The position numbers and the translations under genes were made by a program. Below, piece after piece: positions 42-41,372 of a stretch of DNA of 64,000 nt. The notes beneath the pieces were generated by a model that ran no database searches, was not told the DNA's origin, and saw only the letters and a program-made list of their open reading frames with translations. The DNA is taken from the NCBI GenBank assembly GCA_963847445.1, contig CAWJZV010000042.1, positions 1 through 64,000 of the forward strand, given 5' to 3'. The stretch's first letter is position 1. Every line of letters starts with the position of its first letter. Origin of the DNA: an uncultured delta proteobacterium. GTDB taxonomy: Bacteria; Desulfobacterota; Binatia; UBA9968.

Positions 42-2012
42 ATGAATGAAATTCCGGTGAGCATGTTTAGGAGACTCGCTATGAAGGTCGCGCTGGAAGC
101 ACAGACGGTTGTCGGTAATCCGATAGCTGCCGTCGAGAAATCGATCCCTGAGCGGTTCGAGCAAATGGCCCGACTCTACCCCGATCGAATCGCGATTAGA
201 ACCAAAGATCGTCTGATAACTTACGAGGTTCTTAACAACTCAGCGAATCAAATTGGTCGGGCAATTCTAGACCAGATTGGCCCGGGCAGCGAACCCATCG
301 CACTGTTATTTGGCAATGGCATCGACTTAATTTCCGCATTGCTGGGTGTCCTAAAGGCAGGGAAATTCTTTGTCGCGATTGATCCATCTTTTCCAACATC
401 TCGCATAAATTTCATAGTCAATGACACTGATACCAGACTCCTAGTGACTAACAGTGAAAACTCCGAGTTGTCGAAACGGTTCGGCGCTCCTGATGTTGCC
501 CGGATGAACATCGATGAACTCAAGACCCGACACGGAGATAATAACCTCGGAGCGGTAATCCGCCCCGACGATATCGCTACTATTGTCTACACCTCGGGAT
601 CAACCGGAGAGCCAAAAGGCGTTAGCAAGACTCATGATTATTGCTGGGAGCGGGCCAAATTTAACATCAAATTCCTCTCCGTGGGTGCCACTGATCAGCT
701 GAGCCTGCTGCACTCTATCAGTTTTGGCAGCGGCGAAATAAATCTATATGCCTCCTTGTTATGTGGTGCATCGCTTCAGCCCTTCGACGTCAAATCCGAA
801 GGCGTATATCGGTTGGCACAATGGCTCAGAGCCGAGAGCATCACGATTTTTCATTGTTCTCCGAGCGTGCTGCGCGAACTTGTTGAATTTATTCCTGAGG
901 GCGACCCGATACCGACTTTGCGGCTGATGCATCTATCCGGGTCGCCGATAACCCGTTCCGATTTTGACTTATATCACAGACATTTTTCTCCGCTCACTTC
1001 GCTGGCATTCCATATGGGTGCGACCGAAGCTGGATGCATCGCTTGCGCCGTAGTAAACCATGATTTTCCATTTCCCGCCAAAGGCACTCCAGCGGGTTTC
1101 CCCCCCGAGAACAAAAAAGTTTCGTTGCTGGACGAGGACGGCGGCGAAGTCAGCCCCGGTGGTATCGGTGAGATTGCTGTAAAGAGTAAATATCTCGCAC
1201 ACGCTTACTGGAAAAATCCTGAACTAACCCGGGCAAAGTTTTTACCCGATCCGAATGGTGGCCAAGAGCGCACCTATTTGACCGGCGATTTGGGTCAGAT
1301 TTTACCTGATGGACTTCTTGTCCATTTGGGTCGCAAGGATTTGATGGTCAAAATTCGTGGGTATCGTGTGGAGATAGCAGAGATCGAGAGGAGATTGACG
1401 CAGCACCCCGCAGTCAAGGATGCCGGGGTTACCGCATGGGAGCGGGACAACGGCGATAAGTGCTTGGCAGCTTATATCGTCTCGCGTGGTCCGAATCACG
1501 CAACGATCGATCAGCTTCGGAAGTTTCTCAGAGATATGCTACCAGGCTACATGGTTCCATCGACGTTTATGTTTTTGGACTCGCTACCGGTTACCAACGG
1601 CAAGCTCGATCGTAAGGCGCTACCTCAACCGAATGACAAGCGACCGGAGCTGAGTACAGCCTATGCTTGGCCGACCGATGAGATTGAAAAGAGTCTCGTG
1701 TCGATTTGGGAGAAAGTCCTCGATGTGCGTCCCGTAGGCATCCACGACAACTTCTTTGATCTCGGTGGCCACTCCCTAACTGCGACACAGGTGATCTCAC
1801 AAGTCATCAAGCAATTCCAATTAGAGCTGTCGCTTCAATCTTTATTTCAGTCGCCCACGGTCGCTAAGATGGCGGCGGTCATCACGCAGAACCAGGTGAA
1901 GCGATTGAGCCACGCAGAGCTAACGCAAATGCTGCGTGAGGTGGAGTCGATGACGGAGCAAGAAGCGCAGCGGCGCCTGGACGAAATTAGTTCGCCAATT
2001 GCCAAGGTGTAG
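42..2012 (+). CDS. Stand-alone NRPS-like adenylation + peptidyl carrier (A-T) protein
   Basis: YTSGSTGEPKG, TGDLG, GRKDLMVKIRGYRVE and NGKLDR adenylation motifs; DNFFDLGGHSL phosphopantetheine site; no C or TE domain; exact start uncertain. Confidence 0.92.
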   Translation: MNEIPVSMFRRLAMKVALEAQTVVGNPIAAVEKSIPERFEQMARLYPDRIAIRTKDRLITYEVLNNSANQIGRAILDQIGPGSEPIALLFGNGIDLISALLGVLKAGKFFVAIDPSFPTSRINFIVNDTDTRLLVTNSENSELSKRFGAPDVARMNIDELKTRHGDNNLGAVIRPDDIATIVYTSGSTGEPKGVSKTHDYCWERAKFNIKFLSVGATDQLSLLHSISFGSGEINLYASLLCGASLQPFDVKSEGVYRLAQWLRAESITIFHCSPSVLRELVEFIPEGDPIPTLRLMHLSGSPITRSDFDLYHRHFSPLTSLAFHMGATEAGCIACAVVNHDFPFPAKGTPAGFPPENKKVSLLDEDGGEVSPGGIGEIAVKSKYLAHAYWKNPELTRAKFLPDPNGGQERTYLTGDLGQILPDGLLVHLGRKDLMVKIRGYRVEIAEIERRLTQHPAVKDAGVTAWERDNGDKCLAAYIVSRGPNHATIDQLRKFLRDMLPGYMVPSTFMFLDSLPVTNGKLDRKALPQPNDKRPELSTAYAWPTDEIEKSLVSIWEKVLDVRPVGIHDNFFDLGGHSLTATQVISQVIKQFQLELSLQSLFQSPTVAKMAAVITQNQVKRLSHAELTQMLREVESMTEQEAQRRLDEISSPIAKV

Positions 2013-12830: not shown

Positions 12831-13092
12831 CCTACCGGCTACCTCATTGCAGCCGAATTTCTAAAGTTGCAGCTGGGGCACAACCGCCGCGCCCTCATGG
12901 CTGCGCTGTTTGGCCGCGAAATGTGGCTTCACGGCTTTTCTCCGCGGTCAAAATGGCGCTGCCGTGCCGTCAACTTTTCGACGGTGGCGAAACTCCGGCG
13001 CTGGTGAACTTTATTGCCGAGATCGTATTACCGCGTGGTTAAAGTTATCGCCGTGCGCACCGATTGAGTTTGTCAGAGCGGGGAAGATAAAA

Positions 13093-13689: not shown

Positions 13690-13779
13690 AGCGTTAGGCT
13701 TGCGGGTTCGCTAGCATACGCGCCATGCCAAGTTTCTCCAGTGTAGCGTCTCACACTGTTAGTCGATTATCCTGAGTAA

Positions 13780-13998
13780 CTCACCACGAAGGTCACGAAG
13801 GGCACGAAGGGTTCGGATAACCAAATCTCCGAACTTCGTACTACTATCCGTGATAGTTTGCGCGGCTTGCGCAAATTTCTCGATGCGCCAAATCTGAGAG
13901 GGCGGGTTTCAAACCCGCCCCTACGACTCCCGATATTTTTTGCGCCCTTTGCGTTCTTTTTGCGGCCATTCTTCTTTTTGGTTCGGCTGTGCCGGGAT
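13780..13998 (-). repeat. Nested intergenic repeat element (9-mer CACGAAG arm, right end, REP palindrome, left end)
   Basis: CACCACGAAGGTCACGAAGGGCACGAAG; TACTACTATCCGTGATAGTTTGCGCGGCTTGCGCAAATTT; GGGCGGGTTTCAAACCCGCCC. Confidence 0.78.
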
Positions 13999-14069
13999 CC
14001 TCAGCTCTTTCAATTCTCACTCGCCGCTGGACGCGCTCGATTTCGCTCGTGCTATAGGCAAAAGATCAT

Positions 14070-15426: not shown

Positions 15427-15448
15427 TCGGCAAATCGAGGATCGAGAT

Positions 15449-18041: not shown

Positions 18042-18149
18042 GGTCGCGCCGCGCAAGTCAAAGCAATTAGCGACGCCGGCGGCTTGCACCCGGGACGGAT
18101 TTCGATTACCGGCTTGGGGCGTAATTTCAATCCAATCGAGGAGTTGCTC

Positions 18150-19148
18150 ATGAGTACAAGCCGAATTACAAGGTGGCGTGGTGAACTGTCTCGGCGCGCC
18201 GTGGCCGGAGGATCTGTCGGCGTCGTTTATCGATCAACTGCTCGGCCAAGGCGTCGCGGTGGTCGGCTGCACGGCCAATCTCACTTGGGATGACACCCTG
18301 GAGAGCATCGAGAACTTTGAAATCGTCAAGATCGATCGTGCGCGAGCATCCGCAGGCGTACGTCCTGCGCAGCGCGGCGGATCTCGATCGTCCCGGAACA
18401 TCGCGGCAAAGTCGGCGTGCTGCTCGGCCTGCAAAATCCCAAAGCGTTGAGCGACAGCTTGGGATTTGCTCGATGCGTTCTTCGATCTCGGTTTGCGCTG
18501 TTTGTCCTTGGCCTTCAGCGAAAACAGCTACTACGGCTGCGGCCATGCCAGCGAGGTCGACAGCGGCCTCACGTCGCTCGGCCGCCAGGCGGTCAAGCGC
18601 ATGAATCGGCTCGGCATCGTCATCGATCTGTCTCATTCCGGCGACCGCACGGCGCTTGGAAGCGCTTGGAACTATCCGAGCAGCCGGTGATCTTCAGCCA
18701 TTCGACCAGCCGGACGTTGTTCAACCGGCCGCGCAGCGCCCCCGATCCGCTGATCGTCGCGGCGGCCAAGAAGGGCGGAGTGATCTGCCAGGACGTGCGC
18801 GCCAACACCAGCGTCGCGGAATATGTCGACTGGGTCGACTACTGCGTCAAGCTCGTCGGTATCGATCACATCGGCGTGGCGGCGCAGGACGATTTTCACC
18901 GTTCGTACAAAGACACCAAGCGTATCGCGCCCTATCTGCCGTCCTACGCGGCGGAACTCAAAAAGCGCGATTGGAGCGACGACCGCGTGGTGCGGCGCGG
19001 CGGCATCGGCGCCAAACTGCTCGATCAAGAAAATTTGCCGGCGGAATTCAAGCGGCGCAATTATTCCGACGAAGCGGTCGGAAAGATTCTCGGCGGCAAT
19101 TTGATGCGGGTGATGCGCGCGGTGTTGCCGAAAATTGATGGTTCATAG
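18150..19148 (+). CDS. Membrane dipeptidase (peptidase M19)-like protein, several frameshifts
   Basis: GAGGAG RBS; LLGLQN, DSGLTSLGRQAVKRMNRLGIVIDLSHSG, PVIFSHS, GIDHIG, KILGGNLMRV. Confidence 0.8.
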
Positions 19149-22705: not shown

Positions 22706-23653
22706 CTATTTTTGCGCCAAAACTTCCTTGAGAAAGCGCCAGTCCATGATTTTGTCTTCAGATATATCTTCGGTGAGCTTGAGCTGTTCCCTGGCCAGAC
22801 GGATCTCCGTATCCATGGTGTTCTTGGCGACGAGGCCGTCGGGGTTGAGGGAGCGCATGGCGAAGTCGTGGACTTTCACCGCGGCGTCGGCGCTGACGTG
22901 CAAATAGTCGCGCATGATCGCCAGGGTCTCCGGCTTATGGTCGCGGATGAAGCGCACGCCTTTGAGCGAGGCGCGGATCATGCGGGTGATTTGCGCCGGG
23001 TTCTTGCGAATCTTGTCCATGGAAACGCCGAAGCCGCCGAGCCGCGTGTGCACGACGTCGCCGAAGTAGATTACTGAAACGAGGCCGAGCTTTTCCGCTT
23101 TCTCGACATAGGCGACATCGAGGGGCGTTGCATCTACCGTGCCGGCGACCAATGCCGCCAACCGGTCGCCCGAGCCGCCGACCGCGAGGGTCGTGACGTC
23201 GCGATCGGGATTCATGCCGGCTTGGGCGAGGGCTTCGCGCAAGATGATATGCGGCGCCGAACCCAAACCGCTGACGCCGATTTTTTTCCCTTTGAAGTCG
23301 GTGAGCCGTTTGAAGTTCGGTTTGGCGATCAAGATATGCAGAGGCCGGTCGAACCAGCCCATGACACCTTTGACCGGGAGGTTCTGAATCGAAGCGCGGG
23401 CAATCAGGCCGCTGACCGTGGAGTAATCGAGTTCGCCGGCAAGCAAGGCCGCGACCTGAAGATTGGTCCGAATCACCACCTTGCGCGCATCGAGGTTTTC
23501 TTCCCGATAGAAACCTTTGCGTTGGGCGATCTCGGTGGGAAGTTCATACAAGCCAGGCGTCGATATGCCGATGTGAACGACTTCGGCGCGGCTTGCGAAG
23601 GGCTGACTGACTAGAAGCGCGACTAACGTGAGGAGCTGTTTATACCAAGACAT
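22706..23653 (-). CDS. ABC substrate-binding protein, NMT1/SsuA family
   Basis: KGFYREENLD, LLAGELDY, FKGKKIGVS. Confidence 0.88.
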   Translation of the reverse strand: MSWYKQLLTLVALLVSQPFASRAEVVHIGISTPGLYELPTEIAQRKGFYREENLDARKVVIRTNLQVAALLAGELDYSTVSGLIARASIQNLPVKGVMGWFDRPLHILIAKPNFKRLTDFKGKKIGVSGLGSAPHIILREALAQAGMNPDRDVTTLAVGGSGDRLAALVAGTVDATPLDVAYVEKAEKLGLVSVIYFGDVVHTRLGGFGVSMDKIRKNPAQITRMIRASLKGVRFIRDHKPETLAIMRDYLHVSADAAVKVHDFAMRSLNPDGLVAKNTMDTEIRLAREQLKLTEDISEDKIMDWRFLKEVLAQK

Positions 23654-25535: not shown

Positions 25536-26576
25536 TTACCAGCGCTTTCCCGGCACTTCGCCAGCCCAGAGATCCTTGAGAAAACCGCTCTTTTCCAAAT
25601 TTTCGGCGAAGCTATTGTCGTAGGTTTCACTCGGTTTGCGGCGCACCTGGGCACCGGCCTGACGGGCGGATTCGATGGTATCGGCGACCCGGGATGCGGG
25701 AATGGTGACGCGGCGGTTTACCAACTGCTTGGCATAGGCATCGTAGGCGGCTTGCAAGGATTCGGCGTCCTTGATCGCCAGGACTTTGCCCACCGATGCA
25801 TTGGCGCGGTCCGGGTTTTTTTCGACAAAATGAACCGCTTCGGCCATGGCGGCGACGAATTTCTGCACGACCTCGGGCCGTTCTTTAAGGAGCCGATTGC
25901 TGGTGAACAGGCTGCTGTAAATCGCCGGCAAATTGAGATCGTCGAGTTGATAGATGACGTTGAGACCATCGCGCCGGGCGCGCGCGTCAAGCGGCGGCGT
26001 GACCATGGTCGCATGTCCCAAGTCTTGCAGCAGTGCGTTGTAAACCTCGGTCTGGCCGGCGCCGCCGATATGGCGAATGCTCAATTCGTTGGGACCGAAG
26101 TTGAGCCGCTTCATCAAGACGCGAATCAGCGTGTCGGGCGTGCCGCCGGGGCGGGTGGCGATAAAAATCTTGCCCTTGAGATCTTCGACACGGCGGATAT
26201 CTTTGCGCGCGATCATCACCCAGGGCAGGCCGACCAAGGGCGAGGCGATCATCTTGGCTTCAGCGCCGGCGGCGAGGCTCGGGATGATCGCATCGGCGGT
26301 ACAGTAGAGAAAGTGGAGTTCATTGGAGGACAGCGCCGCCACTGAAACACCGGCACCACGGATCAACAGGAACTCGACTTTGAGACCGTACTTTTCGAAT
26401 AGCCGGTTGTCGACGGCGGTGTAAAGATGCATGAAGCCGCCGCTGATCGCACAGGTGGCGACGCGAATCGATGTCGGAGTTTCACCGGGCTTGGCCAGGT
26501 AAGGATTGGCCGCGTGCAGCACAGAGGATGAGCAGAGCAGGAACGCGAGAGCGATTAATTTGCCGGTGTTTTTCAT
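25536..26576 (-). CDS. ABC substrate-binding protein, NMT1/SsuA family
   Basis: LFEKYGLKVE, VEDLKGK, VTPP; signal peptide. Confidence 0.88.
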   Translation of the reverse strand: MKNTGKLIALAFLLCSSSVLHAANPYLAKPGETPTSIRVATCAISGGFMHLYTAVDNRLFEKYGLKVEFLLIRGAGVSVAALSSNELHFLYCTADAIIPSLAAGAEAKMIASPLVGLPWVMIARKDIRRVEDLKGKIFIATRPGGTPDTLIRVLMKRLNFGPNELSIRHIGGAGQTEVYNALLQDLGHATMVTPPLDARARRDGLNVIYQLDDLNLPAIYSSLFTSNRLLKERPEVVQKFVAAMAEAVHFVEKNPDRANASVGKVLAIKDAESLQAAYDAYAKQLVNRRVTIPASRVADTIESARQAGAQVRRKPSETYDNSFAENLEKSGFLKDLWAGEVPGKRW

Positions 26577-26954
26577 GTGGAATCTCCCAAATGGTAGCCA
26601 GGCTCGCAACGTCGAACACGCTTGATCTCAACAACCTAGCATGAACTACGAAAGGACCGCACCGTTGCGGCAAACTTAGACTGGGGCCTGGTTGTGCTGT
26701 CGATTCGGCGCGTTAACGCGGAATCATTTTTCACAAGCGGTCGAGGTGATTTTCGCGGATATCTTTTCTGGCTTCGCTAAGCTGTGATCGTTAGATAAGC
26801 AACGACGGTACATACGCATTTTCCAGGCGCACACCGACATATCGTTGTGGTAGAGGGCGATCACAATTATGACTGTTCAAGGTTCAATCTCTCAACGTTC
26901 AAGGTTTCCGCACTGGGAACAAGACTCAGATGGTTCAGTCTAGGGAGGCCGCAG

Positions 26955-27939
26955 TTACTTGCCGAGTGATGCTAGGGCTTTGTTGTAAAAGCGTTCGTCG
27001 ACATATTTTTCGGCTTTGAATTCGCCCGGTTTCATCAGGCCGGCGACTTCGCGCAGTTCGATGACCGTGCGGATGCCCGCCATGTCGATGCGGCTGCGCG
27101 CTGTCAGGCCCATGGTTGGGCTGAGCGTGCTGGCGTACATGGCCTCGGCGCGCGCCTTGTTGCCCTTGGTTTCGCCGAGCAGCATTTGCACGGCGTCGTC
27201 TTTGTTCTTCTTGTCCTGCAACCAATCGGTGGCGCGGATCATGGCGCGGTTGAAGCGCACGATCAGCTCTTCGTTGGCGTTAGCCCAGACCCGCCGGGTG
27301 GCGCCGAGGCCGCGGGCGTAATTTTTGACGTAATCTTCCGAGCGCGCCGAGGATCTTGAAGCCGCGTTTGGCGATGTCAGCGTCGGGCATGCTCATCATC
27401 GCGCCGGAGGCGTCGCCCCGGCTCATGGCGTCGGCGCGGGCGCCGGTGTTGCCGAAGGACTTTATCTGGTAGTCCTTCTTCCACTCTAGGCCGTGCTTTT
27501 TGAGGATCGCGATAGCGACCACCGCATAGCCCGTGGTGACGGCGTCGGCGGCCAGCAGTTTGCCCTTGAGATCGGCAAAATCGTTGATGCCCGGCGCAAC
27601 CACGAGTTTTTGATCGACGCCCTGGCTGCCGCCGAGGAAGATCACGAAGTCGTTTTTTTGCGGGTCTTCGCCCTGGCCTTCGGCCCAAGCGATGACGTTG
27701 TCGGCGTTGTTCAAGATCAAGTCATAGTTGCCCTTGATCAAGTTGCGCAGCAAGGTCGGCGAGTCGGTGACCGTGCTGATCTCGACGGCGATATTTTCCT
27801 GCTTGAGAAAGCCCTTTTCGACCGCCGTGATGATCGCGGCGTCGCGGTTGAATAAACCGATTTTGATCGAGTCTTGCGCCATAAGTTCGATCGGCAGCAG
27901 CGCCAACGCGGCCGCCAACACTCCCTTCAATAGTTTCAT
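26955..27939 (-). CDS. ABC substrate-binding protein, NMT1 family (frameshift ~27345)
   Basis: EKGFLKQENI, NNADNVIAW, DLKGKLLAADAVTTGYA; C-terminal part in ORF 26955-27260. Confidence 0.82.
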
Positions 27940-28044
27940 TCGAAGATCCTCCGCAGCCATTTATCCGATTCCCGTCCGTGCTTGTCAATATGTACATGCC
28001 AATCCGTGAATCGTCCAGGCGCTCGCGGCGTCGGGAAAGCCGCC

Positions 28045-28181
28045 GCGAGTAAGCCTTTGTCGCGGATCGCGATGACATGTTCTTTGTCGATGTCGACGAA
28101 GGTGATGTCCGCGCCGGCGCGCGCCAGCCGGCCGCCGATGATGCCGCCGATGGGACCGCTGCCGATGACGATCATGCGCAT
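28045..28181 (-). pseudogene. N-terminal ~45 aa of a ketopantoate reductase (ApbA/PanE) family gene, truncated
   Basis: MRMIVIGSGPIGGIIGGRLARAGADITFVDIDKEHVIAIRDKGL with GGAGG RBS; rest of domain missing. Confidence 0.75.
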
Positions 28182-28444
28182 ATGAAAATACCTCCGCTGC
28201 GGATTTTAGCTGTCGTACAAATATTCAATGGCCGCCTCGCCGTCAATAGGGAGATTCGATAGCTTAGAAGTGTTCCAGAACAAAAGGCCTCAGTCGCCGA
28301 CGCCTGAATGCCAATAGCTATATCTGTTAATTCATGGGTACGGAGTCCGGGCAAAGCGAATGGGCAGGCCGCGCTTTTGACTTGCTAAGATCGAGTAAAT
28401 AAAGGACCATCGGTGCTCTTGGGCAGTAGGTTTAATTCCCTGGC

Positions 28445-29935
28445 GTGAGTCATCGGAGGCGCCAATTGCAAGATCCGCAAGTCACTTTAATTGTTGTGCT
28501 ACGAGAGCGTTTTAGTTTGACGGAGCGATCCCTCTCGAGCATTTACGAAAACACTCAGTTCCCGTTTCACCTCGTTTATGTTGCCGGTAAAGCTCCCTCC
28601 CGTGTTCAACGCTACCTTCAACAGGAGTCGAGCGAAAAGGGATTTCTGCTGATCACTACGGAACATCACATATCGCCCAATCAAGCACGTAACCTCGGCT
28701 TGAAAGAGGTCAAGACGAAATACGTAGTGTTCATCGATAACGACGCGCTGGTTACTCCGGGATGGCTGGAGGCTCTGGTTCGTTGCGCCGAGGAGACCGG
28801 CGCCTGGGTCGTCGGCCCGCTCTGCTTGATTGGCGAGATCGGCGCCGGGGTTGTCCACGTTGCTGGTGGAAATGTTCACTTTACGGACGAGTCGGGGGGA
28901 AAGGTTTTGTACGACGAGCAAAATCTTTTCAATAAGCCGATTCGAGAATTAAAAGAGCGGCTGGTAAGAAGACGCTTTGACTATGTTGAGTTTCACTGCA
29001 TGTTGGTGCGAACCGAGGCATTCCAATCTGTTGGGACTTTGGACGAGCAACTATTGAGCGTCCACGAGCATATCGATTTTTGTTTGGCCGTAAACCAAGC
29101 GGGCGGCTCGGTTTATGTCGAACCAAAATCTGTCGTTACTTATATTCCTTCACCTCCCTACGACTGGACCGACCTGCCGTACTTCATGCTTCGGTGGAGC
29201 GAGCAGTGGAATATCGCTACCACCGACCGATTCTGTGAAAAGTGGGGCGTCACTGCCATGGGATGGCGTGGCAACAACCAATCGACTCCGGTATCAAGGG
29301 ACTTATTGGTCAAGTTTGGCCGAGGGCACCGCCGCATCATGACCGGGGTTACGTATGTCGCGGACGAAGAGGAGGGTGTCTCTCCTGTTGAACAAGCCGA
29401 GTTGATGATTGCGCTTTTCCAGTCCATCGACCGGGATTATTTCGAACTGAGGGTAAGCGCAAAAAATGGCGAAGTATTGGAGTCGCTACCAAATTTGGGA
29501 CCTGACGACCTTCGACGCCGATTGCCCGAGCTCTTGAGAGAGGCCGAGCATAAACATCTTAGTGTGGCTATTCGTCCCGGGGATCATGGCCGGCAAGGCG
29601 GGCTGAGTTTGCTGCGCTTAGACGACTTAGATGCCCTAGCGCTGGACCTGGTACAACGTAGCGCTTTCATGATCTTGGAGACCGATCAGGGTATCTACCA
29701 ATGCTGGTTCGCGGTGGATAGTAGGCAGATGCCAAACCTGGCGAACAGGATGGCGACGGACAAATTGGCAGCGACGCAGGACCCTTTCGCGCCGTTGGCT
29801 GGAAGCAGACGAACAGCGACGGTGGAGTTGCCGCGTGTCCGAATCGCCCGTGGGAGCGCGGGTCTTCTGATGCCGCCAAACCAGCTAGCCAATCAATCGA
29901 TTCAGCTTCTGCTCGAAAAATGCATGATTCAGTAG
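28445..29935 (+). CDS. GT2 glycosyltransferase fused to a C-terminal RepB-primase-like domain
   Basis: GT2: SPNQARNLGL, YVVFIDND, VEFHCMLVR, EHIDFC. C-terminal ~180 aa: VAIRP, LRLDDLD, FMILETDQGIYQCW, PLAGS. GT2 call is firm; primase call is by-eye motif matching. Confidence 0.8.
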   Translation: MSHRRRQLQDPQVTLIVVLRERFSLTERSLSSIYENTQFPFHLVYVAGKAPSRVQRYLQQESSEKGFLLITTEHHISPNQARNLGLKEVKTKYVVFIDNDALVTPGWLEALVRCAEETGAWVVGPLCLIGEIGAGVVHVAGGNVHFTDESGGKVLYDEQNLFNKPIRELKERLVRRRFDYVEFHCMLVRTEAFQSVGTLDEQLLSVHEHIDFCLAVNQAGGSVYVEPKSVVTYIPSPPYDWTDLPYFMLRWSEQWNIATTDRFCEKWGVTAMGWRGNNQSTPVSRDLLVKFGRGHRRIMTGVTYVADEEEGVSPVEQAELMIALFQSIDRDYFELRVSAKNGEVLESLPNLGPDDLRRRLPELLREAEHKHLSVAIRPGDHGRQGGLSLLRLDDLDALALDLVQRSAFMILETDQGIYQCWFAVDSRQMPNLANRMATDKLAATQDPFAPLAGSRRTATVELPRVRIARGSAGLLMPPNQLANQSIQLLLEKCMIQ

Positions 29936-29948
29936 ACGAGGGAAATTC

Positions 29949-32189
29949 ATGAATTCAGTGGACGACAATTCGATCGAGGCCGCGGGCCATCTCGGACTGC
30001 GCGTGGCGATCTGCGCCACGTTTGTCGCCGAGCCGGTGGAAGAGCCGCTGCAATGCTGGCTGCGTGAGATGGGCGTCACTGCTTCAATTTCTTTCGCGCC
30101 GTACAACCAGGTGTTTCAGCAATTACTCGACCCGTCGAGCTTGCAAGCAAAGAACCAAGATGGAGTGAATGTTGCGTTGGTACGCCTTGAAGATTGGTAT
30201 GGAAAACCTGTTGTTGCCCCAGCCGATGATTCCCCAATGGCGGATCCGCATGAAGCATTGAAGCGCAACGTAGGCGATTTCCTCGCCGGGGTTGTCGAGC
30301 TCAGGAAGCGGAATGCCGCTCCGTTAATCGTGATACTATGCCCGCCTAGTCCGTCGATTGCAGATTCAATTCGGAAATCCAACACCTTGGCTGAAATGGA
30401 AGAGAGGCTTGCATCGGAACTCTCACGAATGAGCGCCGTTGAGATCGTCACTAGCGGTACTCTCTTATCCCTCTATCCATTGGCCGACTATCATGATCCT
30501 CACGGCAGTCTATTGGCTGACATACCCTACTTGCCCCCTTTCTATACATGCTTGTCGATGATGATTGCCCGTAAGCTGCACAAGTTAAAGCTCCCTCAGC
30601 GCAAGGTCATCGTGCTCGATTGCGATAATACTTTGTGGAGCGGTATCGTCGGTGAGGATGGCTGTGAAGGGCTACGTTTCGAACCCTGCCGAAAAATTCT
30701 TCAGGAATGCGTGCTAGCCCAGCAGCGCCGGGGCATGCTGGTCGCGCTCTGCAGCAAGAACGATGAACAAGAAGTGTTGCAGGTTTTCGATGCGCGCAGC
30801 GAAATGCTGTTGAAGAAACCGGATCTCGTCGCCTGGCGAATCAATTGGCAATCGAAGTCGGAGAACCTGGTTTCGCTGTCGCAAGAACTAGGGCTTTCCC
30901 TGGATAGTTTTATATTTCTCGATGACGACCCTATGGTCTGTGCCGAGATCCGCGCGAGTTTGCCGGAAGTTCTGACTCTTTTGTTGCCACCGGTGCCGAG
31001 CGAAATTCCCGCCTTCTTGCGCCATGTTTGGGTCTTCGATCATGATTCGTTGACCAACGAGGACCGGCAACGCACGAAACTCTATCAAGAGCATTTCATG
31101 CGCGAACAGGTTCGGCGTGACTCAACATCGCTCGAGGTTTTTCTCGCCAATCTTGAGTTGGCAGTGACCATTTCAAAAATGGCCGATGCCGAGGTCGAAC
31201 GGGTGGCCGAACTGACAATGAGAACCAACCAATTTAATACGACGACCCAGCGGCGCACACCTCCGGAAATGAAGCAGCTCCAGGGGGCCGCAGCTACAGA
31301 TTGTCTGGTCGTGCATGTAAAGGACCGGTTTGGAGATTATGGCCTTGTTGGGGCGATCCTATGCCAGACCGAGAACGACGGCTTAATCGTCGATTCGTTT
31401 CTGCTCAGTTGCCGAGCGTTGGGCCGCGGGGTGGAGCACCGAGTGATCGCGCACCTCGGCTTGCTTGCACAACAGCGCGGATTGAAGTCCGTCAATATCA
31501 TGTGCAAACCGTCGCCGAAAAATATTCCTGCCGTGGTGTTTCTGAAAAGCCTGCCGGGCGTAGTTTGTACGTCATTCCCCGATCGCCAGATGTTTCAGCT
31601 TGTCGCGGCGGCCGCGGCTTCAGTCACTTACTCTCCGACCGAGCATTCCAACAATGGCAATGGCCGAGTCGAAGAAAGTGACGATGCCGGTTCCAGGCGG
31701 AATGACCAGGCCGAGATGGCCGCCCTAAATACGTTTTTGGCTACCATCGCCGAGAGCCTGCGCGATGTCCCGTCGATGCACGACCGGTTTGCTCACATCC
31801 GTTTGCGACACGCCGCAGTTCCGATCGCTATCCCTCCTCGCACTCCGGTGGAAAGCGCGGTTGCTGCGATCTTCTGCGACTTGTTGGGCCTTGACGAAAT
31901 CAGTGTCGACGATAGTTTTTTCAATTTGGGTGGTCACTCGCTTATCGCGATGCAAGTACTCTCCCGATTGAACGCCGAGTTTGATGCCGAGCTCACGCCA
32001 ACGTTGCTTTTCACCAGCAGCTTCACGGTGGCGGAACTAGCGGACACGTTAGTGCAGCATCAACTTAAGAAAATGAACTCCGGTGATATGGAGCAGATTT
32101 TTCAGAAACTGTCGGAACTCACCGATGAGCAGGCCGAGAACCTCACTCTCAGCGGCTTATCTGAGACCCTCCCATCGGCGCGCAAGTAG
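29949..32189 (+). CDS. FkbH-like HAD-IIIC glyceryl transferase with C-terminal acyl carrier domain
   Basis: ATFVAEPV/FAPYNQVFQQLL N-terminus, VLDCDNTLW, SKND, FLDDDP, RTNQFN, DRFGDYGLVG, LLSCRALGRGVE, DSFFNLGGHSL. Confidence 0.93.
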   Translation: MNSVDDNSIEAAGHLGLRVAICATFVAEPVEEPLQCWLREMGVTASISFAPYNQVFQQLLDPSSLQAKNQDGVNVALVRLEDWYGKPVVAPADDSPMADPHEALKRNVGDFLAGVVELRKRNAAPLIVILCPPSPSIADSIRKSNTLAEMEERLASELSRMSAVEIVTSGTLLSLYPLADYHDPHGSLLADIPYLPPFYTCLSMMIARKLHKLKLPQRKVIVLDCDNTLWSGIVGEDGCEGLRFEPCRKILQECVLAQQRRGMLVALCSKNDEQEVLQVFDARSEMLLKKPDLVAWRINWQSKSENLVSLSQELGLSLDSFIFLDDDPMVCAEIRASLPEVLTLLLPPVPSEIPAFLRHVWVFDHDSLTNEDRQRTKLYQEHFMREQVRRDSTSLEVFLANLELAVTISKMADAEVERVAELTMRTNQFNTTTQRRTPPEMKQLQGAAATDCLVVHVKDRFGDYGLVGAILCQTENDGLIVDSFLLSCRALGRGVEHRVIAHLGLLAQQRGLKSVNIMCKPSPKNIPAVVFLKSLPGVVCTSFPDRQMFQLVAAAAASVTYSPTEHSNNGNGRVEESDDAGSRRNDQAEMAALNTFLATIAESLRDVPSMHDRFAHIRLRHAAVPIAIPPRTPVESAVAAIFCDLLGLDEISVDDSFFNLGGHSLIAMQVLSRLNAEFDAELTPTLLFTSSFTVAELADTLVQHQLKKMNSGDMEQIFQKLSELTDEQAENLTLSGLSETLPSARK

Positions 32190-32209
32190 GGACGCGCGGC
32201 AGAACTTAC

Positions 32210-33397
32210 GTGATCCTCCCGTTAAATGTGGTTCTTTTTTCTGTTGGATCGAGGGGTGATGTCTCGCCGTTCATTGAGATTGGACGCCGGCTCAAAGCGC
32301 GAGGTCATGAGGTCAATCTCATAACTCATTTTGGTTACGAAGAAATAGCCAAACGAGCCTCTTTAGAGTTCATCCCCGTCGACACTCCTGAAGAGTACCG
32401 GGAATTCATCGCCGATCAGCATCTCTTGAATCATCCGCGTGGAGTATCAGAATTCATTCGAAGACATTCGTTAGCTAAGATTGTCAAACATTACGAGTTG
32501 ATCGCACAGGCGTGCCAATCACGCAACACCGTTCTCGTAACCCGCGATCTTTTCGACACCGCGATGCGCGTGGCTGCCGAAAAGAGCCACTTGCCGCTGC
32601 GCTGGGTTTTCGGATTTCCAAGTCAAGCTGCGACCTGGAAGCTCCGACAACAATTGTTCACCGATCTGTTACGATCTGACATCGATCGAGCTCGGGCAGC
32701 GCTGGGCCTGGAAAAAGTCGTGCAAGGAGATGCCCGGCTTGAGTATCCATCGGGCGCAATCGGGTTGTGGCCCGAATGGTTTGCCAAGGTTGAATTTGAC
32801 TTGCCGTTCACCGTGACCCCGGTGGGTTTTTTTCGCGATGACGACGGCAATGAGGGCGAGATTCCAGAGATGATCCAAAACGCCGTGAATAAATCTGCCA
32901 CGCCGATTCTGATCACGGCGGGCACGGGCATGTATTTAGATGGGGAATTTTATGCCGCCAGCGCTGCAGCCTGCCGATCGTTAAATGTTCTAGGGATTCT
33001 AATGGCACAGCACAAGGAGCAGCTACCGGGTGATTATCCTGGTTGTGTTAGTTGGCTCGGCTATGTTCCATTCGGGAAGCTGATGCCCCAAGTAAAACTG
33101 GTGATTCACCATGGGGGTATGGGAACCCTGGGATGCGCAATGGCTGCCGGAGTTCCACAGCTTGTTCTGCCCAAAGGGGCGGATCGTCCGGACAACGCGT
33201 CCCATTTGAAGAAGCTGCGGATCGCGGAGTTCTTACCCCCGCCAAAATGGCAGCCGGCAATTATAGCGGATGCCATGCTTCGATTGCTGCGCTCGCCAGA
33301 GATTGGCGAGAACTGCCGGACGCTCGCCGGCCGATTGAAAAACACCGACGGCGCCGCCACGGCCTGTGAGCTGATCGAGCGACATGTACAGGCGTGA
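32210..33397 (+). CDS. GT1 (GT-B fold) glycosyltransferase, RhlB/sterol-GT-like
   Basis: GSRGDVSPF, LKARGHEV, GLWPEWFA, IHHGGMGT, AGVPQLVLP, DRPDNA. Confidence 0.92.
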   Translation: MILPLNVVLFSVGSRGDVSPFIEIGRRLKARGHEVNLITHFGYEEIAKRASLEFIPVDTPEEYREFIADQHLLNHPRGVSEFIRRHSLAKIVKHYELIAQACQSRNTVLVTRDLFDTAMRVAAEKSHLPLRWVFGFPSQAATWKLRQQLFTDLLRSDIDRARAALGLEKVVQGDARLEYPSGAIGLWPEWFAKVEFDLPFTVTPVGFFRDDDGNEGEIPEMIQNAVNKSATPILITAGTGMYLDGEFYAASAAACRSLNVLGILMAQHKEQLPGDYPGCVSWLGYVPFGKLMPQVKLVIHHGGMGTLGCAMAAGVPQLVLPKGADRPDNASHLKKLRIAEFLPPPKWQPAIIADAMLRLLRSPEIGENCRTLAGRLKNTDGAATACELIERHVQA

Positions 33398-33608
33398 TTG
33401 GTGTGTCGCTCTATCTTTGGCGAACTCCATGTGATCTATCATTGACCGGACTAGAGTATACTCGCTTTCGCGTTGCACTGGTTTCGTATAATACCTCACA
33501 TGTAAATCTCGGCTGGTAAATTAGCGAAGTGACCGTTGAAGAATTGTACGATTAATGAAGTATGTACCGCCAGCAGTCAAAGCGAACATTTCCCTGAAAG
33601 GACAGCAA

Positions 33609-34586
33609 ATGAAGCGAATTATGTTTGCAATTGTCGTCGCCACGATGTGCCTCAGCGGGGTCCATGCGGCCGACCGCATTCGCATCGGCTACAGCTCGAT
33701 CAGCGGCGCCTACACGCCGATCTGGGTCGCCCATGATGCCGGCTTCTTTGCCAAGGAAGGACTGCAAGACGACATCATCCTGATCCCCAGCGGCACGCAG
33801 CTGGCGCAAGTGACGGTGGCGGGTGAAATCGACATCGGCTCGCTTAACGGCAGCTCGGCGATCGCCGCGGCGTTTTCCGGCGCCGATCTGAAAATCATCG
33901 GCAACTCCGGCAACAAGATGGTTTTTTCACTTTACGTCCGGCCGGAGATCAAAAACGTCGACGGCATGCGCGGTAAAAAGATCGGCATCACCCGCTTCGG
34001 CTCGGCGCCGGATATTTCGGTGCGCTACGCGCTGCGTAAACACAATATCAACCCCGACAAAGACCTGACGTTGATCCAGCTCGGCTTCATGGCGACGGTG
34101 GCCGCTGGACTACAAGGCGGCTCCATCGAGGGCGGCGTGGTGTCGCCGCCGACGCAATTCGCCATCGACAAGGCCGGCTTCAAGGAATTAATCAGCATCA
34201 CCGACATGGATTACGCTTTCCCCAATCCGGCGCTGGTGGCGGTGGGCTCGATCATTCGCAGCAAGCCCGACGTGATCAACCGTTTCATGCGCGCCTACAC
34301 GCGCGGCGTGCATAAGGCGCGCACCGACCGAGAGTTCACCTATAAATCGCTGGCCAAGTACACCAAGATCAACGATCAAGTGGTGCTGCAGAAGGCCTAC
34401 GATTTCTACATGACCAAAGTTTTGGAGAAGACGCCGGCGGTGAATATGGCCGGTGTCGTCAACGTGCTCGACGACCTGGCCAAGACCGTGCCCGCCGCCA
34501 AGACCGCCAAGCCGGAGCAGTTCGTCGACATGCGCTTTCTCGATACGCTGGAGAAGAGCGGCTTGTTGAAAGAGCTTTATCCGTAG
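33609..34586 (+). CDS. ABC substrate-binding protein, NMT1/SsuA family
   Basis: RIGYSSISG, AGFFAKEGL, GKKIGITRFGS, VSPP. Confidence 0.9.
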   Translation: MKRIMFAIVVATMCLSGVHAADRIRIGYSSISGAYTPIWVAHDAGFFAKEGLQDDIILIPSGTQLAQVTVAGEIDIGSLNGSSAIAAAFSGADLKIIGNSGNKMVFSLYVRPEIKNVDGMRGKKIGITRFGSAPDISVRYALRKHNINPDKDLTLIQLGFMATVAAGLQGGSIEGGVVSPPTQFAIDKAGFKELISITDMDYAFPNPALVAVGSIIRSKPDVINRFMRAYTRGVHKARTDREFTYKSLAKYTKINDQVVLQKAYDFYMTKVLEKTPAVNMAGVVNVLDDLAKTVPAAKTAKPEQFVDMRFLDTLEKSGLLKELYP

Positions 34587-36965: not shown

Positions 36966-38638
36966 TGACCCAGTGCAGTCCCCGATCAATCCCGATCACC
37001 GTCGAGGTCGTGCGCAACGCCTCGTCGCCTATGCCGACGAGATGGCGACGGTGCTGTCGCAAGACCGCCTACAACATGATGATCTACGAGGTGCGCGACT
37101 ACTGCTGCGGGCTCGATCGATCACGCAGACGGCGCATGATCTCGCAGAACCGCGGCGGGCTGCCGATCTTCCTCGCCGACCTCGGCGTCGCGGTCGTCGA
37201 CGGCATGCGCATGCTATGGGCTGCGACGGCTTCGCGCCCGGCGACGTGATGATCATGAATCAGGCCGACGTCTGCGGCCAGCATCTCAACAACGTCGTGG
37301 TCTACACGCCGTGCTTCCACGACGGCGAGCTGGTGGCGTTTCGTCGCCAACCGCGCGCACTGGGTCGATATCGGCGGCGTGCGCATGGGCTTCGGCTCCT
37401 ACGGCACGAGCGAAGTCTACGCCGAAGGCCTGCAGATGCGCTCGCTGAAGATCTACGAGGCGGGCAAGCGCAACGAGACGCTGTGGCAGATCATCCGCGA
37501 CAACATGCGCTATCCCCGAATCGGCGCTCGGCGACCTGCGCGCGCAGATCGCCTCCTGCCAGCTCGGCGACCGCGGCGCTACGGCGAGCTGATCGCGCGC
37601 TACGGGCTGGCAGACGGTCGAGGCGCTGCATCGCACGATCTGGGACCAGGCCGAGGCTAGGCGCGCGCGCGGTGGTCGCGAAATTCGCCGGGCACTACAC
37701 GGCCGAGAGCTTCTTCGACAACGACGGCGCACGCTCGACAAGCCGGTGCGCGTCAAGGTCAAGGTGGAAGTCGCCGGCCGCGACATGACCATCGACTTCA
37801 CCGAGATGAACCCGCAGGTGCCGGGCCCGCTCAACTCCGGCGAGTCCGGCGGCATCGCCGGCGGCGCGCGTCGCGTTCAAGGCGCTGACCTCGCCCGATC
37901 TCGACGTCGACGAAGGCTGCTTTCGCCCGCTCGAAGGTGGTTATGCCCGAAGGCACGATGCTCAACGCCAAGCCGCCGTCGGCGGTGGGCTGTGGAGCAT
38001 CGCGCTGCCGACGGTGATCGACACGATCCTGAAGGCGCTCGCGCCCGCGCTGCCCGATCTCGTTCCCGCCGCGCACAAGGGCGACATGGGCGGCTGCTCG
38101 TTCTTCGGCTATCCGCGCCGACGGCTCGCGCTTCCTGCTGATGAACATCTTCGGCGGCGGCTGGGGCGGCCGGCCGGACGAGGACGGCGAGGACGCCACG
38201 GTGTCGGTGTGCCAGGGCGACGTGCGCAACACGCCGGTCGAGCTGCAGGAGATCCACTATCCGGTGCTCATCGAGCGCCAGCAGCTGCGCGAGGGCAGCG
38301 GCGGCGCGGGCAAGTTTCGCGGCGGCCTCGGCGTCGAAGTCACGGTGCGCGTGCTGTGCGATGCGTCCACCAATATCAACGTCGAGCGCCAGCGCACCGC
38401 GCCGTGGGGATTGTTCGACGGCGAATGCGGCGCGAAGGCCCAGGCGCTGGTCAAACAATCGCCCGACGATCCCGGCGTCTGGCTGACCAAGAAGCCTAAC
38501 TATCCACTTAAAGCCGGCGGCAGTGTGACTTTCTTTACCGCAGGCGGCGGTGGTTATGGCGCCGCCCATGAGCGCGCGTAGGAATTGATGGAGCGGGATG
38601 AGCGAATGGGGTATGTAACAAGCCAGCGCACATACTAA
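36966..38638 (+). CDS. Hydantoinase B/oxoprolinase family protein, heavily frameshifted, in-frame TAG at 38579
   Basis: PITVEV, KTAYNMMIYEVRDY, GQHLNN, AAHKGDMGG, GGGWGGRP, GGAGKFRGG, TAGGGGYG; collinear with intact paralog at 47422. Confidence 0.8.
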
Positions 38639-38969: not shown

Positions 38970-40080
38970 ATGGACGAACAAGCAGTATTTCAAATCGCCT
39001 GACACAAGTGCGCCAAGCGATGCGCGAGCAAGGGCTGCAAACTCTGCTCGTGCATGACGCCGGGCGGCATAATTTTTTGCGCATGAACTACGTCGCCTAT
39101 CTCACCGACTTTATCAGCGTCGGTCCGGACACGATGCTGGTGATCCCGCTGGACGATGCGCCGGTGCTTTATCTCGCGCCGGTTTGGGACATCGCGCGCG
39201 CTCAAGAAGAGTCGCAGGTGAAAGATGTGCGGCCATTCAATGAGATTTCCCGACCTTGGCGCAAGTAAGGCCGGCAAGGTTGGGCTCATCGGCCGGGAGG
39301 CGATGCATGTCGGACTGCATGACGAGATCGTCAAGGCGCTGGGTCAAACGCCGGTCAACGCCAAAGACATCATCGAGACCATGGCGCGCTGCAAAGGACC
39401 GTTTGAGCTGGAGCGCATGCGTCGCGCGGCGGCGATCGCCGATGCCGGCGTCAGCGCCTTGCACGAAGACGCCCGGCCCGGCCTGAAAGAATACGAGCTC
39501 GCCGCCATCGTCGAGTATCCGCATGCGTTCGCTCGGCGCCGAGGATAATTTCGGCATGGTGGTCGCCAACCATCACAACCAAGCGCTCCATCCGCCCACC
39601 GATCGCGTGGTCCAGCCGGGGGATATTATCATCGGCGAGATCACGCCGTGCATCGGCGGTCTGTTCGTGCAGATCTGCCGCACCGTCGTGTTGGGCGAGC
39701 CGGCGCCGGTGGTGCGCGAGAAGTACGCGATCCTGCACAAAGCGATGGGCTTGGGCATGGCGGCGGCGCAGACCGGCGCGCCGGCGAGCGAGGTGGCCAA
39801 GGCGATCAACGGGACGTTTATTGAATATGGCTACGAGCAGTACTGCCGGCCGCCGTTCATGCGCGTGCGCGGCCATGGTCTCGGCTGCGGCTCGTCGGCG
39901 CCGGGCAGTTTGGAAGATGACAACAAGACCAAGTTGGAAGAGGGGATGACGTTCATCATTCATCCCAACCAATATGTGCCGGAGACCGGTTATCTTACGC
40001 TCGGCGATACCGTGGTGATGGGAAAGAACCAGGCGGAGTCGTTGATGAAATCTTCGTGGGATCTCTATATTAAAGAGTAA
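38970..40080 (+). CDS. M24/creatinase-fold protein 1 (frameshifts)
   Basis: Creatinase_N-like start, KGPFELERMRRAAAIAD, QICRTVVLG, RGHGLG, IIHPNQY. Confidence 0.85.
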
Positions 40081-40099
40081 CGGACCGATATTTACACGA

Positions 40100-40187
40100 C
40101 CTGGAACTATTGGAACTGCTGGAACGGCTTGGAACCTTCTCGTTCAAATCGTTCCAGTCGTTCAAAACGTTCCAAGTCGTTCCAGGA
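40100..40187. repeat. Hairpin with tandem 9-mer TGGAAC/GTTCCA arms
   Basis: CTGGAACTA TTGGAACTG CTGGAACGG ... GTTCCAGTC GTTCAAAAC GTTCCAAGTC; related array at 53555-53598. Confidence 0.75.
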
Positions 40188-40214
40188 TGGTTTAAGATCG
40201 ATGTAGGTGACAAT

Positions 40215-41372
40215 ATGATATTCGGCCGACATTCAGTATTGAAACGCGGTTGTTCCACTTGGGATCCGGCGCAGGTGCCGCAGGCGGAGTTTCAGGCGCG
40301 GCTCGATGCCGTGCGCAGGGAGATGGCGCGGCGCGATCTCGACGCTCTGGTGATTTACGGCGATAACTATTCCTTCGCCGATCTTTGCTACCTGACCAAC
40401 TACTTTCCCAAAGTGCGCGGCGGCATCGCGGTGGTGCCGCGCGATGGCGCGATTTCCATGTTGCTCAATATCGGCAGCCGCGATGTGCCGTTCGCCAAGA
40501 CGTTCACTTGGGTCGAAGACGTGCGCGCGTCCAATCAGGTCGGTAGCGATGGCGCCAAGATGATCAAAGAAAAAGGCTTCGAGAAAGCTAAGGTCGGTTT
40601 GGCCGATTCCGGTCATGGATTTCCGCTGCCGCAGTTGGAGGATATGAAAACCGCGCTGCCCAACGTCAGTTGGCAAGATTGCGATGACATCGTCGCGCCG
40701 CTGCGTTTGGCGAAGACGGCGCGCGAGCTCGGCGCCATGTCTGAAGCCGGGCGCCTGCTCAGCGAGGTCTGTGCCGGTGCCGCACGGTTTATTAAGTCTG
40801 GGCGCAAGGAGTATGAAATCGTCGCCGATATCGATCGCTTGGCGCGCGACAAGGGCGCCGAAGATATTCGCATCCTCGCCGGCGAGAATCGGTTCAATCC
40901 GCCGAGCTTCAAACAGGCGGCGAGCATCGGTTCCCATTGGGCGCTTTATCTCGCCGTGCAGCATGAGCGCTACTGGGCCGAGGCGGGGCGGACTTTTATT
41001 CTAACAGCGATGGCAAGATTCAGGCGGCCTATGAGCGAGCGCAAGAAATCGTTGCGGCGATGGCCAAGCAGCTTCGGCCCAATGGCGCCGTTGCTGCCAT
41101 TGACGAAACCGCGCGCAAAGAGCTGGGCGAGTTCTACGCCAAAGCCGCCGTCTATGGTCTCGCCAACGGCATCGGCCTCAATCAATGGGAAGCGCCATTC
41201 TTGAATCAAAGCGATGCCGATGAAGTCGGCGCCGCGACGGTGGGTGCGACGACGTTCAATGAGAATATGACGGTGGCGCTGCGCGTGACCATCGAGTCGT
41301 GACGTAGGCGTGGTGCTTTACGGCGATAGTTTTCAGGTGACGGCGAGCGGGGCGAAGTCGTTGGTGGGTTGA
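40215..41372 (+). CDS. M24/creatinase-fold protein 2, catalytic motifs degenerate (frameshifts)
   Basis: EFQARLDAVRREM, DALVIYGD, YLTNY, RLAKTAREL, YWAEAGRT, NGIGL. Confidence 0.8.

Follow-up and report, generated by a model that had tools for sequence, protein, structure and literature searches.

Three co-oriented genes on the forward strand occupy positions 28445-33397 of the window, which is the whole 64,000-nucleotide stretch of DNA from an uncultured delta proteobacterium that was analysed. Gene 1 encodes a family 2 glycosyltransferase (GT2) fused to a domain with the fold of RepB'-type archaeo-eukaryotic primases (AEP), gene 2 an FkbH_N-FkbH protein that ends in a peptidyl carrier protein (PCP) domain, and gene 3 a natural-product-type family 1 glycosyltransferase (GT1). 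The coordinates of the open reading frames (ORFs) leave gaps of exactly 13 and 20 bp between the genes, as the first-pass annotation of this DNA had stated, and its domain calls (GT2-primase-like, FkbH-carrier and GT1) were borne out by Pfam, TIGRFAM-type profiles and a Foldseek match to structure 3h20. It was also right that the trio is A/T-richer than its flanks. The GC content is 0.541 compared with 0.581 for the whole window, and was equally low in only 2.4% of 591 windows of the same size. GC at third codon positions (GC3) is 0.57-0.63 in the trio and 0.69-0.80 in most neighbouring genes. A promoter and terminator scan of positions 27900-33700 returned 1 promoter-like site (3.4 expected) and 12 terminator-like sites (6.5 expected). 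None was placed between the trio genes, which is compatible with one operon, the scan itself being uninformative. The genes form one apparent operon (Table 1).

The real start of gene 1 is probably the TTG codon at 28466, giving a protein of 489 aa. This codon is preceded by GGAGG at 28455-28459 and the closest homologues are 489 aa long. The N-terminal half matches Glycos_transf_2 (PF00535; 45.4 bits versus a cut-off of 23.3, residues 16-133) and PF13641 (38 bits versus 27). The GT-A motifs read D98-N99-D100, E182-F-H184-C and H207-E-H-I-D211; an alignment of 24 sequences shows no variation at N99, D100, E182, H184 or D211, and at least 90% conservation of D98. Foldseek comparison of the GT-A half returned GT-A enzymes with polypeptide GalNAc-transferases on top (E 5e-14), a lead only, and a phmmer search of the PDB with the whole protein gave just weak GT2 matches. 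The full-length AlphaFold model has a mean predicted local distance difference test score (pLDDT) of 87.2 and a predicted template modelling score (pTM) of 0.89. Because the pTM of this two-domain model is high, it suggests that the GT2 and AEP domains are held in a fixed arrangement. Over 1,200 proteins of ~490-500 aa in the collection searched are homologous to gene 1, and those few that are named carry the labels Chloroflexota and Rokubacteria.

The isolated C-terminal ~200 aa of gene 1 had no Pfam match; PF16793 is annotated on several homologues. An AlphaFold model of residues 271-496, built from 14 sequences (pLDDT 78.3, pTM 0.79), matched the RepB' primase of RSF1010 in Foldseek (3h20, E 9.4e-9, probability 1.00, 22% identity; also 3h25) and the AEP domain of cyanophage S-2L PrimPol (6zp9). 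A profile of the domain found 3h25/3h20 at E 5e-7 when the PDB was searched with hmmsearch. The same profile retrieved 659 of 1.84 billion representative proteins at E <= 0.001, and the ~20 strongest are the GT2-fusion family. Pfam scans of 16 of the 150 listed profile matches found RepB_primase in 13, RepB_primase_C also in 6 and GT2 in 3. The motifs IRP, [LV]DD[LI], ETxPxxYQxW and LAG[ST] are common to the fusion domain and the RepB' primases. Since the fold match to 3h20, the sequence match at E 5e-7 and the retrieval of RepB primases agree, 'primase-like' is a correct description. By these matches the C-terminal domain is a descendant of RepB-type primases, yet a degenerate one.

The extent of the degeneration was examined by comparing 10 RepB-type primases with 24 full-length fusion proteins. 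The catalytic residues of RepB' are D77, D78, D134 and R145, a numbering that fits the present profile alignment. Each residue compared is present in 10/10 primases. Among the fusions, the first and second Asp of motif I are kept in 19/24 and 17/24, the motif II Gln in 23/24, the motif III Asp in 6/24 and the motif IV Arg in 10/24, while the Asn and Lys that follow LAG[ST] are kept in 4/24 and 0/24. The window copy has Pro450 in place of the motif IV Arg, and Arg456 and Ala458 in place of the Asn and Lys. Conversely, a motif S-[VI]-D329-R330 is absent from the primases; D329 and R330 are fixed in 23/24 and 21/24 fusions. All fusion proteins lack the C-terminal helical DNA-binding domain (RepB_primase_C/PriCT-1) and end ~40 aa after LAGS. 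RepB_primase_C was found in 0/3 GT2 fusions as against 6/16 of all profile matches scanned. No longer proteins in which an AEP-like domain is fused to FkbH or to parts of a nonribosomal peptide synthetase (NRPS) were found, which is weak evidence. A survey of AEP families reports near-universal conservation of the acids of motifs I and III in active families and Gln in motif II of RepB'-like enzymes, and gives three RepB' architectures with no word starting 'glycosyl' (PMC5862659). We conclude that the primase-fold domain, judged by its motifs, has been repurposed.

FkbH enzymes transfer a glyceryl unit from 1,3-bisphosphoglycerate via a Cys intermediate onto a carrier, and supply glycerate-derived units to polyketide, tetronate and peptide assembly lines. 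The central part of gene 2 scores 293.5 bits with TIGR01686 (cut-off 146.65) and 51.5 bits with TIGR01681 (cut-off 35.75). Its N-terminal 216 aa resemble FkbH_N (PF21211) in a feature search, where the top atlas clusters score 0.94-0.95, a lead only. Pfam returned nothing useful for the isolated domain, and in PDB entry 3slr an N-terminal region of equal length precedes the matched HAD part. The HAD motif D224-x-D226-x-T228 (within LDCDNTLW), S487-C488-R489 (within LLSCRALGRG) and G661-G-H-S664-L of the carrier are all invariant in 13/13 orthologues. The best solved relatives of the carrier domain are NRPS PCPs, and a PCP-type carrier with GGHSL fits hand-over to a condensation (C) domain. An acidic tail follows the PCP. 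Its D726 is at least 90% conserved in the 13 orthologues, with or without an NRPS gene nearby, and the tail may be a docking element. From its family membership, gene 2 would load the glyceryl unit onto its own PCP. The orthologue in locus L001 is frameshifted near residue 588.

Gene 3 matches EryCIII-like_C (PF06722; 61.4 bits versus 31.7) and Glyco_transf_28 (PF03033; 42.2 versus 26.2). Its best solved relatives are GtfD, GtfB, a sterol glucosyltransferase, CalG1 and OleD. The GT1 subfamily models TIGR01426 (70.6 versus 260) and TIGR04516 (71.8 versus 440) remain below cut-off, and gene 3 therefore belongs to no named GT1 subfamily.

Conservation of the trio in other genomes was examined by a scan of one genome per species, which gave 384 relatives of the GT2 protein; 80 loci were examined. 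The full-length fusion is encoded in 15 of them (L001-L012, L015, L017 and L024), all from uncultured organisms represented by metagenome-assembled genomes (MAGs). The labels of the MAGs include 'delta proteobacterium', Chloroflexota, Acidobacteriota, Thermoanaerobaculia, and Gamma- and Betaproteobacteria. A homologue of FkbH-PCP lies directly downstream of the fusion in 15/15 loci, with 35-92% identity over the whole length, and the stop and start codons of the two genes often overlap or nearly touch. A GT-B gene follows FkbH-PCP in 13/14 evaluable loci, GT1 in 7 and GT4 in 6. L010 has a GT1 remnant only, and L004 could not be evaluated because the contig ends. The remaining 65/80 loci, mostly from cyanobacteria, encode the GT2 part only (340-390 aa, ~50% identity) and no FkbH. 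Clearly, GT2-AEP, FkbH-PCP and a GT-B enzyme form a conserved module, far beyond a chance grouping, and the proposal that the trio is a conserved unit is upheld. The presence of two different GT-B families in the same slot argues for a role in glycosylation over chance linkage. The window trio shares 80-96% protein identity with those of L001 and L003.

Single MAGs can carry paralogous copies of the module (L003, L005 and L010 in one; L001 and L012 in another). The copies are 45-50% identical to each other and differ in the third gene (GT1 or GT4) and in accessory genes.

Condensing enzymes were searched for in the window and in the related loci. No C, ketosynthase (KS) or FabH-type Pfam domain was found in 56 window ORFs, in agreement with the first-pass annotation. 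A tblastn search of the window with three NRPS proteins matched only the FkbH carrier and a stand-alone adenylation-PCP (A-PCP) gene at 42-2012. The sole thiolase-fold gene of the window encodes an SCP2-type thiolase, lies 26 kb from the trio and has ordinary composition. In the 15 loci Pfam covered 85/197 ORFs, and all 80 loci were searched by tblastn with eleven neighbour-gene queries (three NRPS proteins, DUF6817, GT4, ApbA, a phosphopantetheinyl transferase (PPTase), two alpha/beta hydrolases and two unknowns). Within this scope KS or FabH was found in 0/15 loci and a C domain in 4/15, with none within 8 kb in the other 11. Homologous loci therefore do not always include a KS, C or FabH gene, a pattern that would have made the trio a fragment of a known cluster type.

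The four C modules, with thiolation (T) and thioesterase (TE) domains where present, differ in layout. L002 has a C-A-T-TE gene directly upstream of the trio on the same strand, L006 has C-A-T-TE together with a PPTase and A-PCP, and L009 has C-T-TE. In L011 a 1,515-aa GT4-C-A-PCP fusion (11764-16311, forward strand) directly follows FkbH-PCP and physically joins glycosylation to condensation. These modules are 42-53% identical to each other and are thus orthologous; three of the four loci have TE domains. The L002 trio is 79-84% identical to that of the window and lies at the same site by an ApbA/PanE-type gene, the NRPS gene sitting between ApbA and the trio. At this place the window, L001 and L003 have only 62-90 bp, in which no NRPS remnant was found. 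The best solved relatives of the L002 C domain are of the elongation type (Txo1/Txo2, E 1e-94), with the starter-C domain of RzmA at only E 1e-13, from which no conclusion is drawn. Clearly, one NRPS module is a partner with which the trio's module is able to function. Other partners are found elsewhere. An alpha/beta hydrolase gene lies just upstream of the module in L015 and L024, an HMG-CoA-synthase-like gene 2.5 kb upstream in L024 and not in its sister locus L015, and two A-PCP genes are present in L004.

The A-PCP at 42-2012 is the only candidate partner in view. It shares 43-44% identity with the stand-alone A-PCPs flanking the core of L004 and L006, as against 32% with the A domains of C-A-T-TE proteins. 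Among solved structures the LgrA initiation module is closest to it (E 5e-164). With a GC3 of 0.56, it is the only other large gene of the window with GC3 as low as that of the trio. Because it is 26 kb from the trio and at the edge of the window, with its upstream region cut off, it is a lead and no more. The trio had been described as a minimal island. Its independence was thereby overstated, in view of the C-A-T-TE gene of L002, the C modules of three more loci and the A-PCP.

Table 1. Features of the window discussed in the text, with the evidence for each.
Feature	Position	Strand	Evidence
Gene 1, GT2 fused to RepB'-type primase-fold (AEP) domain, ORF 496 aa	28445..29935	+	ORF, Pfam, homologues, full-length model
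GT-A (GT2) catalytic domain, residues ~11-265	28475..29239	+	PF00535, PF13641, Foldseek
Degenerate RepB'-type primase (AEP) fold domain, residues ~300-496	29342..29932	+	Foldseek, hmmsearch of PDB, profile retrieval, motif counts
Gene 2, FkbH_N-FkbH(HAD-IIIC)-PCP, 746 aa	29949..32189	+	TIGR01686, PP-binding, 13-orthologue alignment
FkbH N-terminal domain, residues 1-216	29949..30596	+	feature search (lead only), 3slr
FkbH core, residues 217-534	30597..31550	+	TIGR01686, TIGR01681
PCP-type carrier domain, residues 637-701	31857..32051	+	PF00550 E 2.1e-15
Acidic tail after PCP (L-S-x-L-[ST]-D-[DE]...)	32052..32186	+	13-orthologue alignment
Gene 3, natural-product-type GT1 (GT-B) glycosyltransferase, 395 aa	32210..33397	+	PF06722, PF03033
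Stand-alone NRPS A-PCP, 656 aa, candidate trans partner	42..2012	+	AMP-binding + PP-binding
ApbA/PanE-type reductase remnant, truncated and frameshifted, first ~102 codons, left boundary	28050..28354	-	tblastn/blastn vs L001-L003; Pfam on intact orthologues
NMT1/SsuA-type solute-binding-protein paralogues	2156-3109, 22706-23653, 25536-26609, 27280-27960, 33555-34586, 53666-54718, 55423-56439, 60977-61963		
DUF2339/DUF3999 membrane-protein pair	6672-9748	+	
Genes in pieces	10269-15355, 16946-18089, 18417-19148, 36973-37788, 39523-41204		

We tentatively propose that the trio builds a glycosylated glycerate on a carrier protein, with the AEP domain as an adaptor and release by variable partners. 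The first step, for which family membership is strong evidence, would be the transfer of glyceryl from 1,3-bisphosphoglycerate by the HAD site and Cys488 of FkbH-PCP, giving a thioester on its own PCP. GT2 and then GT1 would use nucleotide-sugars to glycosylate the free hydroxyls of the glycerate while it is tethered. Glycosylation on the carrier has a precedent in the analogous action of MitB on AHBA-S-MmcB (AHBA, 3-amino-5-hydroxybenzoate). The first-pass annotation had also proposed that carrier-bound glycerate is glycosylated, and this part is the most economical reading. The primase fold would no longer polymerise and would serve as a non-catalytic adaptor, most plausibly recognising the PCP or the acidic tail. 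Release would depend on whatever partner the genome supplies. The C-A-T-TE module of some relatives would give a glycosyl-glyceroyl-amino acid and the alpha/beta hydrolase of others free glycosyl-glycerate; in the window the partner would act in trans, with the A-PCP as candidate. A more elaborate version, which we consider somewhat unlikely, is a carrier-templated glycoside line. In it PCP-bound glycerate would prime the synthesis of a di- or oligosaccharide by a GT-A and a GT-B enzyme, the exapted primase fold with its S-[VI]-D-R motif would be the adaptor, and the routes of thioester release (amidation by a single NRPS, hydrolysis or another route) would be interchangeable.

Several observations weigh against this proposal. 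The sequence data, which give domain identities only, would fit action of the glycosyltransferases on the tethered or on the released substrate. The GT2-only relatives in polysaccharide-type clusters would also suit a glycan-building role. Neither the window nor 9/15 loci have a thioesterase, hydrolase or C domain that would account for release. With regard to the adaptor, 3 of the 10 comparator primases are Pfam-verified. The window copy retains D393-D394 of motif I, the motif II Gln and, in the motif III column, an aligned D439 that adjoins a low-confidence loop (residues 440-443, pLDDT below 50). By these residues the AEP domain of the window may have kept some nucleotide binding.

We also considered that the trio is a satellite of an NRPS pathway. 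It would then do no more than provide the glyceroyl starter for an NRPS whose gene lies elsewhere in this genome, with the glycosyltransferases tailoring the product after its release. The PCP type of the carrier is in keeping with this. FkbH-derived glycerate starters are reportedly found in NRPS products of the aeruginosin type. The C-A-T-TE gene beside the closely similar trio of L002, and the orthologous C modules of L006, L009 and L011 with the GT4-C-A-PCP fusion among them, favour such a pathway. So do the atypical GC3 of the A-PCP and the position of its relatives beside the core of L004 and L006. Since single MAGs can encode the module in two or three paralogous copies, partners may be shared. 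Against this, 11/15 loci have no C domain within 8 kb, and the glycosyltransferase slots (15/15 and 13/14) are far more conserved than the NRPS (4/15). Furthermore, the NRPS is cleanly absent from the window, L001 and L003. This explanation is unlikely.

We wondered whether FkbH-PCP might instead be an acyl donor that places a glyceroyl ester or amide on a sugar or glycan built by the glycosyltransferases, as a decoration of a surface polysaccharide or oligosaccharide. The nearest GT2 relatives lack the primase domain and are encoded in clusters of the polysaccharide type, together with GT4, GT28-C, ATP-binding cassette (ABC) or Wzx exporters and sugar epimerases. DUF6817 is common to such loci and to FkbH loci, and ABC exporters adjoin the module in L012. 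However, no acyltransferase is conserved in the module, and the third gene is a small-molecule-type GT1. Scans for a flippase, polymerase or priming phosphotransferase were negative for the window and for most of the 15 loci. We regard the acyl donor role as distinctly unlikely.

DUF6817, an HD-like protein, accompanies the GT2 clade as a whole. It is encoded in 6/15 FkbH loci (L004, L005, L007, L008, L009 and L017) and in 8/65 GT2-only loci of the polysaccharide type (L013, L014, L036, L046, L052, L057, L058 and L071). It is fused to GT4 in L017 and to GT2 in L013, and is absent from the window. The literature searched contained nothing relevant on it. Cyanobacterial GT2-only loci (L016, L054, L069 and others) have two GT28-C genes, GT4, an ABC exporter, a sugar epimerase and an OprB porin in conserved clusters, and Adonisia and Leptolyngbya have three tandem GT2 copies.

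The trio had been placed among transporter genes. Profile scans show that NMT1/SsuA-type solute-binding-protein genes do flank it, together with a DUF5924 membrane protein and a nitroreductase, and that these flanks have no complete transporters. Eight NMT1/SsuA-type paralogues occur in the 64 kb, none with an adjoining permease or ATPase gene. The window also encodes hydantoinase A/B, MmgE/PrpD and a TctC-family receptor. A DUF2339/DUF3999 membrane-protein pair is present in the window and, in L007, a DUF2339 gene lies immediately upstream of the module (5024-7687, reverse strand). The ApbA/PanE-type gene at the left boundary is intact in L001, L002 and L003. Synteny of the window with L001 and L003 starts exactly at 28051, which points to a rearrangement breakpoint there. 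Scans for tRNA and Rfam families had no matches in the whole window, so that neither a riboswitch nor a tRNA-flanked island was seen, and the window scans revealed no tRNA or mobile-element mark at the boundaries of the trio. The term 'island' was not sustained as to boundaries. The same placement beside ApbA is found in the genomes of L001, L002 and L003.

Many other genes of the window are in pieces. They include four MFS_3 fragments, a two-part luciferase-like monooxygenase, a partial M19 dipeptidase, a Hydantoinase_B fragment and a split M24/creatinase peptidase, and may be pseudogenes or indel errors of long reads or assembly. Together with the truncated ApbA gene at the synteny break, the frameshift in L001 FkbH-PCP and the GT1 remnant in L010, they raise the question of whether the trio is a decaying remnant that lost its NRPS and makes no product. 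We consider this improbable. None of the three ORFs is broken or shortened, no examined catalytic motif is missing, and the arrangement without NRPS is kept in L001 and L003 at high protein identity. The broken genes, moreover, may be assembly errors.

Least probable by far is that the primase-like domain is active and serves to nucleotidylate the tethered glycerate or to modify nucleic acid, as in defence or plasmid function: homology to RepB' primase in fold and sequence and the motif I DD and motif II Gln of the window copy speak for it, while against it stand the replacement of the motif IV Arg and of the Asn and Lys after LAGS, the family-wide scarcity of the motif III Asp and loss of the Lys, the near universality of motif I and III acids in active AEP families according to the survey (PMC5862659), the missing RepB_primase_C/PriCT helical domain, the lack of PADLOC matches (E <= 0.01) for the three trio proteins or the A-PCP, and the lack of replication, mobility or nuclease genes among the neighbours in the window and related-locus scans. 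Nucleotidylation and nucleic-acid modification, both raised by the first-pass annotation, appear unlikely because of the lost motif IV Arg and Asn/Lys, the motif III Asp count of 6/24, the absent helical domain and the empty PADLOC result.

If the carrier-templated version of the proposal is correct, glycosyl-glycerates would be a family of metabolites made by uncultured bacteria with the labels Acidobacteriota, Chloroflexota, Rokubacteria and Proteobacteria. The literature searched described neither a GT2-primase fusion nor an FkbH/glycosyltransferase module, and contained nothing linking glyceryl-ACP (ACP, acyl carrier protein) with a glycosyltransferase or FkbH with a glycolipid. The combination of FkbH, glycosyltransferase and glycerate led just to papers on aeruginosin-type and other assembly lines. 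Since all 15 full-length loci are from uncultured organisms, the product class is probably unsampled chemistry. The module is widespread, with >1,200 fusion homologues and MAG labels from several phyla, and its three genes total < 5 kb and are easy to express. The primase-fold fusion offers a handle on how glycosyltransferases recognise carrier proteins and, if the proposal holds, would clearly exemplify the recruitment of a replication enzyme fold into secondary metabolism.

By its sequence the trio resembles the FkbH-primed, carrier-dependent pathways to natural products, and its gene 2 belongs to the FkbH family. With the FkbH/OzmB-type loaders of methoxymalonyl-ACP, tetronate and glycerate-starter pathways it shares TIGR01686, the HAD DxDxT motif, the conserved Cys and the carrier Ser, and an FkbH_N-like N-terminal domain is suggested as well. 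It differs in its carrier, a fused domain of the NRPS PCP type (GGHSL). The constant partners here are two glycosyltransferases and not FkbG/I/J/K, a FabH-like enzyme or a polyketide synthase (PKS). Unlike in the classical FkbH pathways (PKS, tetronate, NRPS), the condensing enzyme is absent from the window and 11/15 relatives. FkbH-primed NRPSs of the aeruginosin/dysinosin type likewise have an FkbH carrier beside a C-domain module, as in L002, L006, L009 and L011. Those lines are multimodular, whereas here at most one C-A-T-TE module is present, none in the window, and the glycosyltransferases are constant.

As to its product, the proposed class resembles the glucosylglycerate-type glycosides, which serve as compatible solutes and as the primer of mycobacterial methylglucose lipopolysaccharide and likewise carry sugar(s) on glycerate. 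Their pathways use free 3-phosphoglycerate and GT81-type synthases and no carrier protein; the window profile scans revealed no GpgS-like gene. The catalytic-domain fold and sequence similarity of the RepB' primase of RSF1010 (3h20/3h25; PF16793) are common to the gene 1 domain. In contrast to that enzyme, the gene 1 domain stands behind a GT2, has no helical DNA-binding domain, is degenerate in motifs III/IV and the Asn/Lys pair, and has the new motif S-[VI]-D-R. A parallel to the proposed reaction is in mitomycin biosynthesis, where MitB transfers N-acetylglucosamine onto AHBA-S-MmcB, that is, glycosylates a carrier thioester (PMC8621148). The likeness, a glycosyltransferase acting on a small acid held as a carrier thioester, is one of reaction. 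The substrate there is AHBA and is loaded by a CoA ligase, whereas here glycerate is loaded by FkbH, and no primase fold is involved there. A module in which the condensing enzyme is optional and two glycosyltransferases are constant is unlike the known supply role of FkbH. If the proposal is correct, sugars would be assembled on a thioester-tethered hydroxy-acid, a logic documented for few pathways such as mitomycin.

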